Shown here: positions 646 to 7,268 of the stretch, piece after piece | Numbering within the stretch: the stretch's first letter is position 1 | How the letters are laid out: each line of letters begins with the position of its first letter | Source of the DNA: a virus | Taxonomy: Duplodnaviria > Caudoviricetes | Virus record (IMG/VR): IMGVR_UViG_3300030106_002282 | Coordinates: 1-59,683 of that record | Length of the DNA stretch: 59,683 nucleotides | Direction: 5' to 3' (one strand) | Made by a program: the position numbers and the translations under genes | The notes under the pieces: generated by a model | Told to the model about the DNA's origin: nothing | Database searches by the model: none | What the model saw: the letters and a program-made list of their open reading frames with translations, nothing else

Positions 646-950
646 TGCATGGACAGACAACAGCGACTTTTGACACTCCCTTCTTTAAGGGTCTTTCGTC
701 ATGCAATATGCGGATTAAAGTGTCATTTGTTGCAGGTCGGCTCACAGCGATTGTCCTAAAACAGTGAGGGTTCTCTAGGTCTGCAACGAGCAGGGTACGA
801 TGAACGATACAGGTCGAGCAAAAGCCATGACACCTGTAATCCCTTTTGCGGTTTAGTAGTGACGTTTGGAATAATTACTGCGATAGGGAGACTCCCTCCA
901 GAGTCCACGAATTAACGTGCCGAAGAGAATCCTAATTATGGGGTTCAAGA
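646..950 (+). ncRNA. Unidentified highly structured RNA / 5' leader with pseudoknot
   Basis: Helices 671-677/719-725, 678-682/687-691, 729-738/778-787, 741-745/764-768, 808-814/832-838 crossed by 818-824/843-849, 890-894/901-905, 906-909/916-919, 927-933/940-946; G-U pairs favour the + strand; no + strand ORF in the track. Confidence 0.55.
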
Positions 951-978
951 AACTCTAACTAATGGAGGTTAGAAAATT

Positions 979-1252: not shown

Positions 1253-1666
1253 ATGAAAATAAATTTTATAGAAATAGCAGGATATGAAAGTATTGATGCC
1301 AATATAGATTTCATTAACAATGAAATAACTCCTGTTGATTACGTGAAAAACTTTTCATGTAATGCAGTTCCTGTTGAAGGTGGCGGTCTTTGGTATTCCT
1401 ATACATTTAATAATTTGCTCGTGACTGTTATCTGTCACCCAGGTTCTATTGGTGGTCTTAGCGGTAAATGGGAAATAGGTATCAGAAATAAAGATACAGG
1501 TGAATGGTTAAATGTTCCTAATGGATATATTTCCACAAGTCAGGGAGGTGTCGAGGGTTGGAAATCTTGGAATGAAATCCAGATAATCCTTAAAAAAATT
1601 CTTGCTGACGCTATGGAAGAAATTCGTTTAGAGAGTAAAGAGCCACTTACCTTAGAAGATTTATAA
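1253..1666 (+). CDS. Hypothetical early protein
   Basis: 137-aa ORF with ATGGAGGT RBS at 1240-1247. Confidence 0.8.
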   Translation: MKINFIEIAGYESIDANIDFINNEITPVDYVKNFSCNAVPVEGGGLWYSYTFNNLLVTVICHPGSIGGLSGKWEIGIRNKDTGEWLNVPNGYISTSQGGVEGWKSWNEIQIILKKILADAMEEIRLESKEPLTLEDL

Positions 1667-1766
1667 ATCAACTGACGAGCCTGTGAAATTCAGGCGAAAC
1701 ATTAAACTAGTATCCAGTAATGGACTAACCCTATACGGGTGTCTTGGTGTTAGCAATTTTGCTAAC
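1667..1766 (+). ncRNA. Hammerhead ribozyme, type I (HHR2)
   Basis: ATCAA/TTGGT stem I; CTGACGA 1672-1678; GCCTG-TGAAATT-CAGGC stem II; GAAA 1696-1699; ACA/TGT stem III enclosing two hairpins; GUC triplet 1741-1743; 3' hairpin 1749-1766. Confidence 0.85.
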
Positions 1767-1804
1767 GAATTCTAACTTGGGAAAAAAAAAGATGGAGGTC
1801 TTAT

Positions 1805-2854
1805 ATGAAACCAAGTCAAGCGATACTATCGATGAAATCGATATTAAAGGGTTCTAATACTCCTTACCTTCAAGGTAAGCCAGGTATTGGAAAAAGTGCA
1901 ATTGTTAGGAAACTAGCCGAAGAATTTGCAGAAGATAGAGAGATTGTAAATTCAATTAATCCAACTAAAAAACAGTTTGGGTTTATTGATTTCAGATTGT
2001 CTCTTTATGAGACTGTTGATTTAGGCGGGTTGCCTTACATAGACGAAGATAACCAACAGAAGAGAGCCTTTTTAGGAAATCTTCCTGTAGGTGGCGAGGG
2101 CATATTATTCTTTGATGAATTTGCTCAGGCTCATTCGTCTGTGATGTGTGTCTGCGGACAATTACTCTATGAAAGAAAAATCGGAGAGTATGTTCTGCCT
2201 GAAGGGTGGAAGATTGTCTGTGCGGGAAACAGGGCAACTGACAGAGCAGGAGCAAATAAAATTCCTACTCAAGTTAATGACAGGTGTACGATGTTAAATG
2301 TAGATGAAAACATCAACGACTGGATTGCATGGGCAACTGAGAATGATGTAAGTCCTGACGTATTGGGATTCATTAGTTATGAACCTCAGTACCTTTGCGA
2401 CTTTGACCCAAAAATAACGACTCCACAGCCGAGTCCTCGTTCTTGGGTTCGTCTTTCTGATACATTGAAAACGAATCCGCCAAAAGAAATTTTGCAATTA
2501 GTTTGTGAAGGGGATATTGGCGAGACTGCTTCGATTGAATTTCTTACCTTTTTGTCTTTGAAAAATGACTTGCCGAATGTTCAAGACATTTGCGAAGGCA
2601 AAGACGTAGAAATGATTGACGAGGGCGGTAAATCTTATGCTCTAGTTTGTGCATTAGTTTCGATTCTTAAATCGGAAATAGATAATCCAAACGTAGCTAA
2701 TTATTTTCAAAATAGTCTTAACTATGTTGAGAAATTACCTACTCCAGAATTTGCGATTTTCTATGTTCGTTCTTTGATTGGAGCAATACCAGACTTAGCA
2801 GAAACTTCTACTTATTCTGATTTCAAAATTAGAAATCAAGATTTAGAAGTCTAG
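1805..2854 (+). CDS. MoxR-like AAA+ ATPase
   Basis: Walker A GKPGIGKS, Walker B ILFFDE, AGNR sensor, PSPRSW; followed by a VWA protein. Confidence 0.85.
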   Translation: MKPSQAILSMKSILKGSNTPYLQGKPGIGKSAIVRKLAEEFAEDREIVNSINPTKKQFGFIDFRLSLYETVDLGGLPYIDEDNQQKRAFLGNLPVGGEGILFFDEFAQAHSSVMCVCGQLLYERKIGEYVLPEGWKIVCAGNRATDRAGANKIPTQVNDRCTMLNVDENINDWIAWATENDVSPDVLGFISYEPQYLCDFDPKITTPQPSPRSWVRLSDTLKTNPPKEILQLVCEGDIGETASIEFLTFLSLKNDLPNVQDICEGKDVEMIDEGGKSYALVCALVSILKSEIDNPNVANYFQNSLNYVEKLPTPEFAIFYVRSLIGAIPDLAETSTYSDFKIRNQDLEV

Positions 2855-2868
2855 GTTGAAAAATGAAT

Positions 2869-2923
2869 TGGGCGAGATGTAAAAAAATATTATTCGCTAG
2901 TGAATAAAATTACATCTTGCTCA
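2869..2923 (+). other. Long intergenic hairpin upstream of HHR3
   Basis: TGGGCGAGATGTAA/TTACATCTTGCTCA 14-bp stem with a TCGCTAGTGA motif copy near the apex. Confidence 0.6.
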
Positions 2924-2929
2924 CTTCAA

Positions 2930-2986
2930 TATCTGATATTGGAATGTGTATTCCAACTGACGAGCAGGAAACTGCGAAATCAGATA
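2930..2986 (+). ncRNA. Hammerhead ribozyme, type III (HHR3)
   Basis: TATCTGA/TCAGATA stem III; AUA triplet 2936-2938; TTGGAA-TGTGTA-TTCCAA stem I; CTGACGA 2957-2963; GCAG-GAAA-CTGC stem II; GAAA 2976-2979; complete canonical core. Confidence 0.93.
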
Positions 2987-3016
2987 ACTTTTATCTAACA
3001 GAATGGAGGTTCTAAA

Positions 3017-4003
3017 ATGGATAAAAAATTAACTAATACCTTATCGGAAAACTGTATGTTGGTACGTCTTACTGCAAGACATCCTTCAGGCATTAAGGTC
3101 GATAAGAAGTTAAGAAGCGATTTAGCGGTTGATACGAAAGTATCTGACGATAAATTGTTAGGTGTTTCTAAACATATCTTTGGTCGAAATATCAATAAAG
3201 AGTTTCGCCAAATTTTAGATAAGTTTAGAAATGACTTTTATAAACCTTTAACTTTACCCTGGGACGATTCTTCTTCCCTTGACGAAGAGGGAAAAGTTTT
3301 ATCGGAATGGCGACTTTGCCCTAACACGAATCTTGAGCGACTTCAGTATGAAGTAGACCAAGCGACTCTTGTCTGGGATAAAGAAGTTCAAGGGTTTCTC
3401 AGAACCTATCCTAAACAAATGGAAATGGCGAAGAGAAATTTGGGCGATGCTTTCAGAGAAAGTGATTACATGGATTTTGACAAATTAAGACAAAAGTTTT
3501 TGTTTCAATTTGAAATGACTCCTGTTCCTACTTTCGGAAACGATATCAGACTTAACGTCTCAGAAAAGTTAAGGCAGAGAATAGAAGCGGATGCGATTAA
3601 TCGCCAAAGTAAAAACATCAATAACGTAATGACAATTACTGTTGATGCTTTGCTAGAGCAGGTTAATCACGTTGCAACTAAACTCAAAGAGTATGACCCT
3701 GACAATAAGCAGAAAGGCGGATTCTTTAACAAGTCTAGTTTCGAGAAATTGAGACAAGCGGTTGAAGTGCTACCTTCTATTAATCAGGACGTACTAGGCA
3801 ATAATCAAAATATTGCTGACGCTCATCAAAGTCTTTGTTCTGTTCTTGCAACAATAAATTCTGTTGATTCTCTTAGAGATGAAACAGATTTAGGGAAGCA
3901 AAAACGTGGACAGGTTGCTGAAGGTCTTGAGCGGTCTGTTGATGGACTGAAAGGCAATTTGTTCGACAAAATTTATGGAGGTAAGAAAGATGAAAACTCT
4001 TGA
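3017..4003 (+). CDS. Helical hypothetical protein (DUF3150-like partner of AAA/VWA modules)
   Basis: 328 aa, LTLPW motif, lies between the AAA ATPase and the VWA protein; family assignment from memory. Confidence 0.6.
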   Translation: MDKKLTNTLSENCMLVRLTARHPSGIKVDKKLRSDLAVDTKVSDDKLLGVSKHIFGRNINKEFRQILDKFRNDFYKPLTLPWDDSSSLDEEGKVLSEWRLCPNTNLERLQYEVDQATLVWDKEVQGFLRTYPKQMEMAKRNLGDAFRESDYMDFDKLRQKFLFQFEMTPVPTFGNDIRLNVSEKLRQRIEADAINRQSKNINNVMTITVDALLEQVNHVATKLKEYDPDNKQKGGFFNKSSFEKLRQAVEVLPSINQDVLGNNQNIADAHQSLCSVLATINSVDSLRDETDLGKQKRGQVAEGLERSVDGLKGNLFDKIYGGKKDENS

Positions 4004-5339
4004 TTCCATAATTAAGGCTAGAGCAAAATTGATGAAAGGGCATATTGGCATGGCTAGTATGCTCCTTAATCTTGACTTGGTTGAATGTGAAGAATCAAAG
4101 TGCAATACGATGGCAACAGATGGTAAAAACATTTTTTACTATCCGCCTTTCGTGGATAAATTAACTGAAGCAGAATTGCGAGGTGTACTTGTTCACGAAG
4201 CGTTGCACGTTGTTTATGAGCATCCACTAAGACGTGGTAAACGTCATCCTAAAGTATGGAATATTGCTTGTGATTACGTTATCAATGCTTACTTGTATTG
4301 GGATTTAGGTTTTGAATTGCCTTTTGGCGGTTTACTTGACCATAAATACAAGGGTTGGTCTGCGGAAAAGGTCTATCAACATTTAATTAAAAATGAAAAT
4401 GACCTGCAAGAAGCAATTGAGCAAGTCAAACAGCAGAATCAAGATGCGGACATGGAGGACGATTCGCAAGATTCTGAAATACCAGACACTAGTGAAGAAA
4501 ATATTTCTGAAGAAGCTGACGAAGATAGCGAAGCCGATGGCGGAGAATCTGAGTCAATTGATTTAGATGCTATTCCTTCAACTATTGGCGAGGTATTAGA
4601 TGCAACTGACGATGAAGGAAAGCCTTTGAGTGATGCTGAGATTCAAGAAATTTCAACTGAGATTCAAAGAGCAGTAGCCTTATCTGACAAGTTAGAAATA
4701 GCTGTTGGAAGCGGTACTAATTCATCTTGCGGTGGCAGAATGGAAGAATTGAAAGAAACTTCAATTGACTGGAAAGAGCAATTGAATGACCTCTTACGTT
4801 CTTCTTTTGCTAACGATTATTCGTGGTCGAGACTGAATAAAAGGTTTGCTTGGCAGGGTTTAAATTTGCCGAGTAAAACTAGGTCTCCGCAAGGTGGCGA
4901 ATTAGCGGTTGCAATTGATACTTCAGGTTCTGTATCTCAATACGAATTGAATAAATTTGCTACTGAGATACAAGCTATGGCGGAGGACTGCGGTCTTGAA
5001 AAAATCAGAGTTTGCTACTGTGATACAACTGTTCGTAAAAATGAGCAGGGGGAATGGTGGGATTACTTTGATTTATCTTCTGGCGATGAATTGGAATTAG
5101 CAGTTCGTGGCGGTGGCGGTACAGAGTTTGACCCTGTATTTAATCTGCTGAATGACTACACTGATGATGCCGAAGATATTCAGGCGATGGTCTATTTTAC
5201 AGATGGTTGGGGAGACGTTTCTGAAGACGTTGAACCTGATGTTCCTGTGTTTTGGTGTTGTACTGAAAAAAGCAGTTATTCGGAACGTCTTGCCTTTGGC
5301 GAGGTGGTCTATGTAGATACTGCTAGATTCTACGACTAA
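3990..5339 (+). CDS. DUF2201-like metallopeptidase plus VWA domain protein
   Basis: TMATDG, HEALH zincin motif, WNIACD, acidic linker, MIDAS DTSGS, GGGGT, FTDG; start chosen from ATGGAGGT RBS at 3975-3982. Confidence 0.85.
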   Translation: MKTLDSIIKARAKLMKGHIGMASMLLNLDLVECEESKCNTMATDGKNIFYYPPFVDKLTEAELRGVLVHEALHVVYEHPLRRGKRHPKVWNIACDYVINAYLYWDLGFELPFGGLLDHKYKGWSAEKVYQHLIKNENDLQEAIEQVKQQNQDADMEDDSQDSEIPDTSEENISEEADEDSEADGGESESIDLDAIPSTIGEVLDATDDEGKPLSDAEIQEISTEIQRAVALSDKLEIAVGSGTNSSCGGRMEELKETSIDWKEQLNDLLRSSFANDYSWSRLNKRFAWQGLNLPSKTRSPQGGELAVAIDTSGSVSQYELNKFATEIQAMAEDCGLEKIRVCYCDTTVRKNEQGEWWDYFDLSSGDELELAVRGGGGTEFDPVFNLLNDYTDDAEDIQAMVYFTDGWGDVSEDVEPDVPVFWCCTEKSSYSERLAFGEVVYVDTARFYD

Positions 5340-5350
5340 AAACTTTCTAT

Positions 5351-5391
5351 TAGCGAGTGATATTTGAGGGGTACTCAGATATCACTTGCTA
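5351..5391 (+). other. 18-bp intergenic hairpin upstream of HHR4
   Basis: TAGCGAGTGATATTTGAG-GGGTA-CTCAGATATCACTTGCTA. Confidence 0.65.
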
Positions 5392-5434
5392 TTAGTTTTG
5401 CCCTCTATGAGCCTGTATGGAGGTCTAATTTTAA

Positions 5435-5521
5435 AAACTGATAGCAAAATGTGTGTTTTGCCTGATGAACGCGAAAGCGTACCCTTCTAGGAGGGTGGCT
5501 CAAAAGAGCCGAAATCAGTTT
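5435..5521 (+). ncRNA. Hammerhead ribozyme, type III variant with two inserted hairpins (HHR4)
   Basis: AAACTGA/TCAGTTT stem III; AUA 5441-5443; GCAAAA-TGTGTG-TTTTGC stem I; CTGATGA 5462-5468; extra hairpins 5469-5480 and 5481-5496; GGCTC-AAAA-GAGCC stem II; GAAA 5511-5514. Confidence 0.8.
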
Positions 5522-5548
5522 AACTAACTTTTATAAGATGGAGGTCTT

Positions 5549-5821
5549 ATGAATGATTTAAATATGAAGGTATTCTATAAAAATGTTTATGGTAATGACC
5601 TTTGCTATCCTTTTTGCAACACTGCAAAGAAATTCGCAAAGTTAATTGACCAAAAAACTTTTAATAAATACCACTTGGAAACAATAAAAACTTTGAAATA
5701 TAAAATTGATATTGTTGCTTATAATCCTAAACAAAAAGATGCTTGGGACACTTCTGCTAAATGGATTAAAGAGGATATGAAAGAAAATCCTCAGAGATAC
5801 CAAAACAAGGAGGAGTTATGA
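5549..5821 (+). CDS. Hypothetical protein
   Basis: 90-aa ORF with ATGGAGGTCT RBS; KNVYG..YP motif recurrent in phage proteins. Confidence 0.75.
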   Translation: MNDLNMKVFYKNVYGNDLCYPFCNTAKKFAKLIDQKTFNKYHLETIKTLKYKIDIVAYNPKQKDAWDTSAKWIKEDMKENPQRYQNKEEL

Positions 5822-6018
5822 CTGAGAAAATCATTTTAATTTTAGGTTCTATTTGTATATGTGTTTTCACTACAATTGCTTATTCTCAAGCAGATTATGT
5901 GTTTGAGAATGGTTATCCATCACAAGCAAATTTGCTGATTATTTTTTCGGCAGGTTTGTTCGTGGGTATTTCAATTGCAACTGTTTTTTCCAGATTATTT
6001 TATGGAGATAAAACATGA
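5818..6018 (+). CDS. Small two-TM membrane protein
   Basis: Two hydrophobic segments; ATGA overlap with the upstream gene. Confidence 0.7.
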   Translation: MTEKIILILGSICICVFTTIAYSQADYVFENGYPSQANLLIIFSAGLFVGISIATVFSRLFYGDKT

Positions 6019-6725
6019 ATAGACTGCGAGAAATACAAGAACAACTTGGTAATCTCTTTTCTTTGGAAGGCATGACTAATTTTAACTTCGATAAGAAGGT
6101 TGAATTAAATGCTGACCTGAAAGAGAGAATCGAGGAAGCTTCTTTTGGAAAAATGATTCATCACCCTTTATTGGTTGTTGTGCCTATGACAGATAATCCT
6201 ATATTGATAACTCAATACAACTTGCAATATGAAGCTAAGGTTCTTCAAGTGCAAGAAGCTATTGAACAAAATAATATTCATGGGTTTATCTATTTGCACG
6301 AAAGACCTTACAGGCATGATGCTTTGATAAATGCTTATGCTGAATGGTGGATTCCAGATTCCGATTTAGAATATTGGGACGTTATTGTTTCTGCTTGGAT
6401 AGACTCCGAGAATATATATGCAAATTTATCTTCTTGGAAAAGTTTATTAACAGAACAATATGCAAATCCTCATCTAATGATGGACGAAGAAGAGAAAGCC
6501 TTCTTTGATTCTTTGCCTGACGAGATAACAATATTTCGTGGTGGCATCGATGATAAAGGGTTTTCTTGGACTCTAGATAAGGATAAAGCAAATTGGTTCG
6601 CTAATAGGTTGAATCAAAACGAAGAAGTCTTTGAGAAAACAATCAATAAGAATAATGCTTTGGCATATCTTAATGGTCGTGGAGAATCAGAGATAATTTA
6701 TATTCCAGAAAAGGAGGAAGCATGA
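6015..6725 (+). CDS. Hypothetical protein with C-terminal ADP-ribosyltransferase-like (R-S-E) motifs
   Basis: IFRG ... FSWT ... GESEII motif order. Confidence 0.5.
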   Translation: MNRLREIQEQLGNLFSLEGMTNFNFDKKVELNADLKERIEEASFGKMIHHPLLVVVPMTDNPILITQYNLQYEAKVLQVQEAIEQNNIHGFIYLHERPYRHDALINAYAEWWIPDSDLEYWDVIVSAWIDSENIYANLSSWKSLLTEQYANPHLMMDEEEKAFFDSLPDEITIFRGGIDDKGFSWTLDKDKANWFANRLNQNEEVFEKTINKNNALAYLNGRGESEIIYIPEKEEA

Positions 6726-6853
6726 AACTTACTAAATCACAAAAAGAAATGCTTATATTTGCTTTGAATATTGTGCTAAAAAATTATTGTTCAACACAAC
6801 AAGACGAGCAAAGATACGCAGATTTAATTAAACATATTAAGGAGGAAGCATGA
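6722..6853 (+). CDS. Small hypothetical protein (43 aa)
   Basis: AAGGAGG RBS, ATGA coupling, open frame MKLTKSQKEML...KEEA. Confidence 0.65.
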   Translation: MKLTKSQKEMLIFALNIVLKNYCSTQQDEQRYADLIKHIKEEA

Positions 6854-7008
6854 AACTTGGAGATTATGATTTTTCTTTATCTTTCAGAATAGAAGTTCGC
6901 AATAACGACAAGGAGGAAACTCTTCTTCATGTTGAAGATAGCAGACATTTATCTGATAAAACACTTCTAGCAATTATGGAGGATATTGCAGAAATAAAAA
7001 CAAAATAA
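6850..7008 (+). CDS. Small hypothetical protein (52 aa)
   Basis: AAGGAGG RBS, ATGA coupling, open frame MKLGDYDFSL...EIKTK. Confidence 0.65.
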   Translation: MKLGDYDFSLSFRIEVRNNDKEETLLHVEDSRHLSDKTLLAIMEDIAEIKTK

Positions 7009-7012
7009 AATT

Positions 7013-7055
7013 AAGGCGGTAGCTACTTTAACGAGTAGCTACCGCCTTTTTTTTT
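7013..7055 (+). terminator. Rho-independent terminator ending the early operon
   Basis: AAGGCGGTAGCTACT/AGTAGCTACCGCCTT 15-bp stem running into a T9 tract. Confidence 0.9.
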
Positions 7056-7066
7056 GGTCTGAATAT

Positions 7067-7268
7067 TGTGAATAACTCTTGTATCTTGCTTCCTGGGTTG
7101 CATCCTGGAAAAAAAATATTCACTAGTGATATATATTTACTGCGTTCTAGCGTGGGTGTTTTTTTACAGCTAAAAACACAACAAAATTAATTTTAGTTCC
7201 TGCGTGAATAATATTTTTTTTACCTGTGGATAAACCTGTGGACAAACCTGTGTATAAACTGTTAATAA
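7067..7268. promoter_or_regulatory. DnaA-box cluster (candidate origin or DnaA-binding locus)
   Basis: TGTGAATAA 7067-7075, TGTGGATAA 7225-7233, TGTGGACAA 7237-7245, TGTGTATAA 7249-7257, TGTTAATAA 7260-7268; same orientation, 11-12 bp spacing in the main array. Confidence 0.65.

Follow-up and report, generated by a model that had tools for sequence, protein, structure and literature searches.

The element located at positions 5435-5521 (plus strand) of the window, which designates here the whole 59,683-nt stretch of DNA analyzed, is, as judged from its sequence, a genuine type III hammerhead in which a two-hairpin domain has been inserted after A9. It lies in the leader of a small ORF, within a block of genes sharing one strand; the phage is marine and uncultured, and its viral record is complete (59,683 bp). 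Such a two-hairpin insertion after A9 of a hammerhead appears to be previously undescribed. It is likely that the element functions as an active type III hammerhead processing the mRNA of a phage operon, the insert being a dispensable peripheral domain organized as a four-way junction.

Anatomy and genomic setting of the element

From 5' to 3' on the plus strand, the element opens with the first strand of stem III (5435-5442, AAACUGAU), which pairs in the minimum free energy (MFE) fold with the second strand (5514-5521, AUCAGUUU) over 8 bp that covary across relatives, U5442 (position 16.1) pairing with A5514 (position 15.1). A17 (5443), placed within an AUA triplet by the core layout, precedes the predicted cleavage site (5443/5444) and is followed by the stem I hairpin (5444-5461), composed of 7 bp and a GUGU loop which belongs to a UGUGUG motif common to canonical relatives. 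The core nucleotides C3 to A9 (5462-5468, CUGAUGA) abut stem I. Three hairpins ensue: hairpin A (5469-5480, ACGC-GAAA-GCGU), with 4 bp and a GNRA loop; hairpin B (5481-5496, ACCCUU-CUAG-GAGGGU), with 6 bp including a U.G pair and a CUAG loop; and hairpin C (5497-5510, GGCUC-AAAA-GAGCC), assigned to stem II, whose closing pair G5497-C5510 corresponds to G10.1-C11.1. The core is completed by G12, A13 and A14 (5511-5513, GAA).

The MFE and centroid folds of 5430-5526 both coincide exactly with this structure (-34.1 kcal/mol), shuffled sequences reaching on average -18.5 +/- 3.0 kcal/mol (z -5.21) and none out of 200 folding as well. The same fold persists in the full intergenic region 5340-5565 (z -6.44). 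The three abutting hairpins, which an earlier sequence-only reading had placed between CUGAUGA and the final GAAA, were borne out to the base by the read-out and the fold, and the five-helix junction that it had deduced was recovered both in the fold and by comparison with an insert-less sibling. The element possesses CUGANGA 3' of stem I, GAA, the A15.1-U16.1 pair and a non-G residue at position 17, while its loop-capped stems I and II, its open stem III and the G10.1-C11.1 closure of stem II correspond to the layout of type III hammerheads. The feature which departs from this layout is the contiguity of the so-called Block C, that is, at most 1-2 nt between CUGANGA and stem II, as 28 nt (5469-5496) are found at this place. 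The size of 28 nt proposed from the sequence for the insertion after A9 is thus that of 5469-5496, the indel relative to the nearest insert-less relative being 27 nt with one U shared; in the spacer alignment, the last U of hairpin B is the counterpart of a bulged U present in insert-less relatives.

The ribozyme sits in a 209-nt spacer between a DUF2201-type gene and a 90-aa ORF, both on the plus strand. The upstream gene (3975-5339) encodes a 454-aa protein with DUF2201_N and DUF2201 domains, metallopeptidase-like and VWA-like (PF13203, 3.2e-39; PF09967, 8.4e-17; phrog_1314). Among phage GenBank records, its only relatives share at most 31% identity, and neither Megablast of 3900-7100 nor blastn of 5340-5548 gave a match against these records. 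Among sequencing runs, no RNA run containing the sequence was listed, and one possible run had a word share of 0.06. Directly after the upstream stop codon lies an 18-bp hairpin (5351-5391, plus strand), terminator-like with a weak U tail, and a GGAGG-like version of the ribosome-binding motif is hidden in another hairpin (5402-5423, plus strand). The ribosome-binding site and start codon of the downstream ORF (5549-5821) span 5540-5551, with GGAGG at 5540-5544, 19 nt past the ribozyme, and ATG at 5549; in the MFE fold, GGAGG is located in the loop of a hairpin (about 5530-5553) and ATG in its stem. Several hammerheads of the window are likewise flanked by genes on one strand, and each closely precedes a GGAGG site. 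The plus-strand gene block which holds all the hammerheads of the window ends with a hairpin (7013-7048) that is strong and terminator-like in both directions, with 16 bp and U tracts on both strands.

One of these hammerheads (2930-2986, plus strand) is a textbook-like type III ribozyme with GCAG-GAAA-CUGC as stem II. It shares with the element the CUGAU/AUCAG core of stem III and, with its UGUGUA sequence, the type of loop I, in agreement with the resemblance of stems I and III and of the UGUGUR loop I to HHR3, the copy at 2930-2986, noted in the sequence-only reading. The type III hammerhead at 900-956 (plus strand) has an AAUUAA loop I complementary to UAAUU of its stem II loop and is, from this complementarity, probably of the pseudoknot type. 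Its core reads CCGAAGA, versus CUGAUGA in the related L007:1220-1274, and two extra A residues separate stem II from GAA. Two paralogous hammerhead-like cores (1126-1155 and 1671-1700, plus strand) are 83% identical over 30 nt: the first reads CUGACGU, with U in place of A9, and the second CUGACGA, followed by GCCUG-UGAAAUU-CAGGC and GAAAC. When the region 1667-1748 (plus strand) is folded, the 1671 copy resembles a type I hammerhead, GUC at 1741-1743 being the cleavage triplet; a stem III of only about 2 bp closes a branched loop containing the hairpins UCCA-GUAA-UGGA and ACCC-UAUAC-GGGU, again a short GNRA-capped hairpin followed by a second hairpin.

Identity of stem II and recurrence of the insert

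The third hairpin had been proposed to be the true stem II, and comparison with relatives upholds this assignment. In the locus L006, whose neighboring gene encodes a protein with 92% identity, stems I and III are those of the window element, GGCUC-AAAA-GAGCC forms the sole stem II, and the ribozyme reads CUGAUGA-U-stem II-GAAA. Alignment of the L006 and window spacers revealed a clean 27-nt indel as the only difference between the two ribozymes, both upstream hairpins being absent from L006. The loci L002-L005 (95% protein identity) exhibit the three-hairpin form with a hairpin A changed in a compensatory manner, from ACGC/GCGU to ACGU/ACGU, and L215 carries flank substitutions as in L006, yet the insert is present. 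The same long and short relation is found in other lineages, for example with L041 and L039 (short) versus L020 (long) at this site. In addition, the third hairpin starts with G and ends with C in 38/38 unique insert-bearing variants, the C being imposed by the search pattern for some loci. Since L006 keeps hairpin C and this G-C closure holds in 38/38 variants, hairpin C is assigned to stem II and the insert is positioned after A9.

Alternatively, stem II could correspond to hairpin A, as a homolog of the 4-bp stem with a GAAA cap in the hammerhead at 2930, and hairpins B and C would be inserted between 11.1 and G12. Indeed, a stem II of 4 bp capped by GAAA occurs in many canonical relatives, and the covariance model placed such stems in the columns of hairpin A. 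However, the L006 sibling retains the third hairpin and not the first, as do L041 and L039 when compared with L020. Moreover, while the third hairpin is invariably G-C closed and its AAAA loop is common to canonical siblings, the closing pair of hairpin A is A-U, C-G or U-A among the 38 unique variants. This reading is disfavored by the sequence comparisons and appears very improbable.

The distribution of the insert was investigated in 62 related viral loci, fetched via the DUF2201 protein and then searched with a hammerhead descriptor, and by pattern scans of viral contigs, metagenome contigs and prokaryote genomes. According to the descriptor, the ribozyme occupies the same place in most of the 62 DUF2201-linked loci. 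A pattern leaving the insert unspecified (loop I motif, CUGAYGA, 22-52 nt, stem II with an AAAA loop, GAAA) retrieved 34 stretches from viral contigs, all of them hammerheads with an insert, and 60 stretches from metagenome contigs, representing 29 distinct inserts of which 23 belong to hammerheads and 6 look like chance. The pattern scan of 185,579 prokaryote species genomes returned 4 stretches, none folded as a hammerhead. When a 4-bp GAAA hairpin was specified after CUGAUGA, 81 viral stretches were obtained, mostly canonical hammerheads with a chance GAAA, together with one new insert form; a CCAC-GARA-GUGG hairpin pattern gave 12 stretches, nearly all on contigs already in the collection.

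The resulting census comprises 297 context-deduplicated descriptor hits from 227 sources, with 228 canonical hammerheads and 7 other forms. The search allowing inserts between positions 9 and 10.1, suggested in the sequence-only reading, thereby uncovered two-hairpin inserts in 61 of the 297 contexts, viral or metagenomic, corresponding to 38 unique sequences and 29 unique inserts. A large part of the census loci was found by patterns or a descriptor demanding CUGAYGA, GAA and perfect stems I and III, so that the core and pairing statistics are partly built in. A single-hairpin insert was encountered in one hit (L204:3182-3257, minus strand), a four-helix form with one 7-bp hairpin and an AA linker after A9. 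Three hammerheads with an AAUUAA loop (L053:18-99, L144:3108-3189 and L162:3949-4034) have a stem II of about 43 nt with an internal extension, versus about 21 nt in relatives; the stem II side is thus enlarged in another manner in these copies.

The inserts, 27-41 nt in length, fall into about ten sequence classes. Hairpin A is for instance ACGN-GNRA, CCAC-GARA, CCUA-GCAA, CCC-GAAA, CUC-AAUAU, AGCUC-GCAA or UGUUGU-AUAU, while hairpin B ranges from 5 to 11 bp, with sequences unrelated between classes. A GNRA loop caps hairpin A in 28 of the 38 unique variants and hairpin B in 6 more. Across classes, the insert has neither conserved unpaired nucleotides nor a conserved loop sequence. In 38/38 unique variants, no linker nucleotide intervenes between A9 and hairpin A, between hairpins A and B, or between hairpin B and stem II. 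A loop I of the UGUGU type and an AAAA loop II, between which a tertiary contact would form, recur in insert-bearing and insert-less forms alike. The phages carry inserts in two distinct intergenic regions, the hairpins of one being unrelated in sequence to those of the other, and within one genome the insert can be present at either site or at both. As for canonical relatives, a single additional nucleotide follows A9 ahead of G10.1 in 46 out of 228 (43 U, 3 A).

Covariation supports all the helices. RNAalifold, applied to 24 insert sequences, predicted stems I, A, B and II unaided, with compensatory changes in 17 of 20 pairs. In helix tables built from the junction outward, compensatory positions amount to 5/6 for hairpin A, 9/11 for hairpin B, 3/5 for stem II, 7/8 for stem I and 6/8 for stem III; hairpin A alternates between ACGU/ACGU, ACGA/UCGU, CCAC/GUGG, CCUA/UAGG, CCC/GGG and others. 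These tables and a covariance-model alignment were used because MAFFT alone misaligned stem III and hairpin B. In the covariance-model alignment, 97.7% of the cells are standard pairs versus 65.6% after shuffling, and the covariation score is 0.637 versus 0.195, with 0/500 shuffles as high and scores of at most 0.093 when partners were slid by 1-3 columns. All five helices have pairs changed on both sides, including all 6 modeled pairs of hairpin B; the counts for hairpin A are inflated, as this alignment includes canonical hammerheads whose stem II sits in the hairpin A columns.

Detection by current models and published precedents

With Rfam 15, no hammerhead match was obtained on the element, whether the whole window was searched at the gathering threshold and at E<=10 or the 116-nt region 5420-5535 alone, likewise at E<=10. 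The insert-less sibling (L006:4970-5060) gave no hammerhead match either, and no Rfam hammerhead model matched the canonical copy at 2930-2986 at E<=10 in a 5.6-kb search (1500-7100). The sole Rfam hammerhead match was a weak one, Hammerhead_3 at 1652-1705 (20.3 bits, E 1.1). Hence, the suggestion that standard descriptors would miss the element stands as far as Rfam 15 is concerned, but the insert is not the sole cause: since insert-less copies fail too, the miss reflects model coverage of this phage class and not the insert. Rfam coverage of the marine-phage hammerhead class appears poor.

According to Eckert, Friedrich, Weinberg and Weinberg, CUGAnGA is separated from its stems by at most 1-2 nt in all hammerhead alignments known, and their block model is based on this contiguity of Block C (Eckert et al., 2023; PMC10085705). 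The insert class contradicts this generalization while keeping every other defining feature of hammerheads. The non-circularly permuted SGC and CSG hammerheads are likewise natural departures from the classic connectivity found in environmental sequences; these types rearrange intact blocks, whereas the window variant keeps the classic order and interrupts Block C (PMC10085705). A divergent cluster of three-stem hammerheads falling below Rfam thresholds, which may overlap the insert class, has also been described in a 2026 preprint (10.64898/2026.10.21.760802). Full-text searches of the literature yielded no account of a hammerhead in which hairpins follow A9 ahead of stem II; examples might be contained in the supplementary alignments of Perreault 2011 and Eckert 2023.

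Among the closest systems are the canonical type III hammerheads located between phage or prophage genes, many of which flank genes in prophages (Perreault et al., 2011; PMC3088659). They share with the window elements the same core, stem order and open stem III, and several flank single genes or short blocks on one strand, a habit also seen here (PMC3088659). The copies at 2930-2986 and in L006 are of this canonical kind, while the window element differs by 28 nt and by a five- instead of a three-helix junction.

In the discontinuous Clec2 hammerhead, the insertion is said to be of several hundred nucleotides and to occupy a peripheral loop between strands, and not the joint between a core nucleotide and stem II. 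This ribozyme is likewise a natural hammerhead whose structure is separated by a large insertion (PMC6765202). At the A9/G10.1 step itself, CChMVd(+) has an extra A, the mutation of which to U raises activity 3-4 fold (De la Pena and Flores, 2001, as cited in PMC3705267, for this extra nucleotide, A10), and the hammerheads of Penelope-like elements (PLE) conserve a nucleotide between 9 and 10.1 (PMC4209133). The insertion point of CChMVd(+) and PLE hammerheads is therefore the same as that of the window element, but it accommodates one bulged base there and a 27-41 nt two-hairpin module here. Extra junction helices that are dispensable or promote folding are known in the three- and four-way forms of twister-sister (PMC5660989) and in the four-way junction of the hairpin ribozyme (PMC3672286). 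These belong to other catalytic classes, and the likeness concerns the role proposed for the insert. In the literature on hammerheads, no description of an optional junction of this kind was found.

Function and evolution of the insert

The proposed mechanism is as follows. The nascent operon RNA would fold hairpin by hairpin and self-cleave between A5443 and G5444, leaving the mRNA of the upstream DUF2201 gene with a 2',3'-cyclic phosphate and the downstream mRNA with a 5'-OH and the 78-nt structured body of the ribozyme retained ahead of the ribosome-binding site. The insert may derive from the bulged U between A9 and G10.1, at which the backbone would exit the helix, by expansion into the 28-nt two-hairpin module. 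From the absence of linkers, a perfect four-way junction is expected between the core extension (A9.G12/G8.A13), hairpin A, hairpin B and stem II, so that the three-way core of the hammerhead would be augmented by a four-way junction, with a total of five helices. Stacking of stem II on the core extension and of hairpin A on hairpin B would be the arrangement preserving the hammerhead geometry, and is the most likely one, the stack of hairpins A and B running alongside the stem II/III axis; the short hairpin A would then lie next to the core, toward stem III, and hairpin B next to stem II. The insert could brace or tune the fold or stabilize the 5' end, or be nearly neutral, and would take no part in the chemistry.

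The A9/G10.1 step is a metal-binding site in crystal structures. A 28-nt insertion next to it could lower the rate of cleavage. It is also conceivable, although unlikely, that the insert silences the ribozyme, these hammerhead-derived leaders being kept for another purpose, for example as a 5' stabilizer, as a signal for transcription pausing or termination, or as a group of hairpins controlling translation. Besides its position inside the catalytic core, adjoining A9/G10.1, this idea finds some support in other natural insertions in the core: single-nucleotide insertions at A6a and U13a mostly lowered activity (Perreault et al., 2011; PMC3088659). In addition, one insert variant (L177:4869-4950, plus strand), detected only by the covariance model, has the non-consensus core CCGAUGA in place of CUGAUGA, and the CCGAAGA and CUGACGU cores of hammerhead-like copies in the window indicate that core drift occurs in this phage. 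L177 also contains a second insert variant (1723-1806) with a normal core.

The retention of the core argues against such silencing. It was assessed in a gene-anchored sample of 63 sources (the 62 loci and the window), found via the neighboring protein and not via the RNA, in which a covariance-model search, although the model still rewards the core, identified 115 hammerheads in 59/63 sources, including 23 with an insert. All 23 insert-bearing copies keep CUGAYGA (CUGAUGA in 22 and CUGACGA in 1), whereas the unpaired core should be the first to go in a decaying relic. Across the roughly ten insert classes, these cores are accompanied by GAA, A15.1-U16.1 and a non-G residue at 17 despite wholly diverged helices. 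Such a constant unpaired core amid diverged helices is, on comparative grounds, the signature of a working ribozyme and not of a relic. Furthermore, by analogy with the CChMVd(+) and PLE ribozymes (PMC3705267; PMC4209133), the insert is located at the one core position documented to tolerate extra nucleotides. Cleavage by the insert-bearing form is therefore considered probable.

Beyond an active ribozyme with a peripheral domain, the sequence-only reading had raised the possibility of a regulatory or protein-binding module. A phage or host protein, or a change in ions or temperature, would bind or re-stack the junction, switch cleavage and hence time the processing of the operon RNA. The linker-free perfect junction of all 38 unique variants is compatible with this scenario, as two stacking arrangements are in principle open to a junction of this type, only one of which would keep A9.G12 on G10.1-C11.1, and so are the GNRA loops borne by hairpin A or hairpin B in most variants. 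A more specific version, in which the conformer of a two-way-stacking junction would be set by a phage or host factor, Mg2+ or temperature, making the element a natural allosteric hammerhead timing operon RNA processing, is judged improbable, and the regulatory module in general is rather unlikely. Indeed, the lack of conserved unpaired nucleotides argues against a small-molecule pocket, no loop sequence is shared between insert classes, and no candidate binding protein co-varying with the insert was found in the data examined.

The phylogenetic distribution of the insert likewise weighs against a regulatory role. In a quick tree built by maximum likelihood from 56 rows of the DUF2201 protein and rooted at the midpoint, the downstream site carries the insert in 13 cases and a canonical hammerhead in 38, 5 being cut by the contig end. 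The insert status changes 5 times on this tree, at least 4 changes being forced by well-supported branches, and some of these flips fall between almost identical proteins. As its status flips between near-identical phages, the insert is dispensable and has been repeatedly gained, lost or exchanged. Weakly selected inserts would account for this pattern no less well than functionally useful ones.

Three other roles were considered and rejected: tRNA-like mimicry, as no T-loop-like feature is present; a further hammerhead nested in the element, for which the GAAA loop of hairpin A would serve, as CUGAUGA and this GAAA have no hairpin between them; and an anti-Shine-Dalgarno function of hairpin B, the sequence of which is not conserved across classes.

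Returning to the favored reading, that of an active hammerhead with a dispensable junction domain, the window form and the 27-nt-shorter L006 form constitute a natural pair for measuring the effect of a four-way junction on folding and rate, and engineered sensor domains might be grafted at A9/G10.1. Should the insert-bearing form prove inactive, the insert would be a curiosity of phage leader evolution; should the allosteric reading hold, whole domains could be accommodated by an opening of the hammerhead core at A9/G10.1. No small ribozyme has been studied more than the hammerhead, whose CUGANGA and stem II are handled by search descriptors as a single uninterrupted block. The existence of a conserved, covarying domain of 27-41 nt at A9/G10.1 shows that this core tolerates a whole structured insertion and, as a consequence, that existing descriptors and covariance models under-count natural hammerheads.
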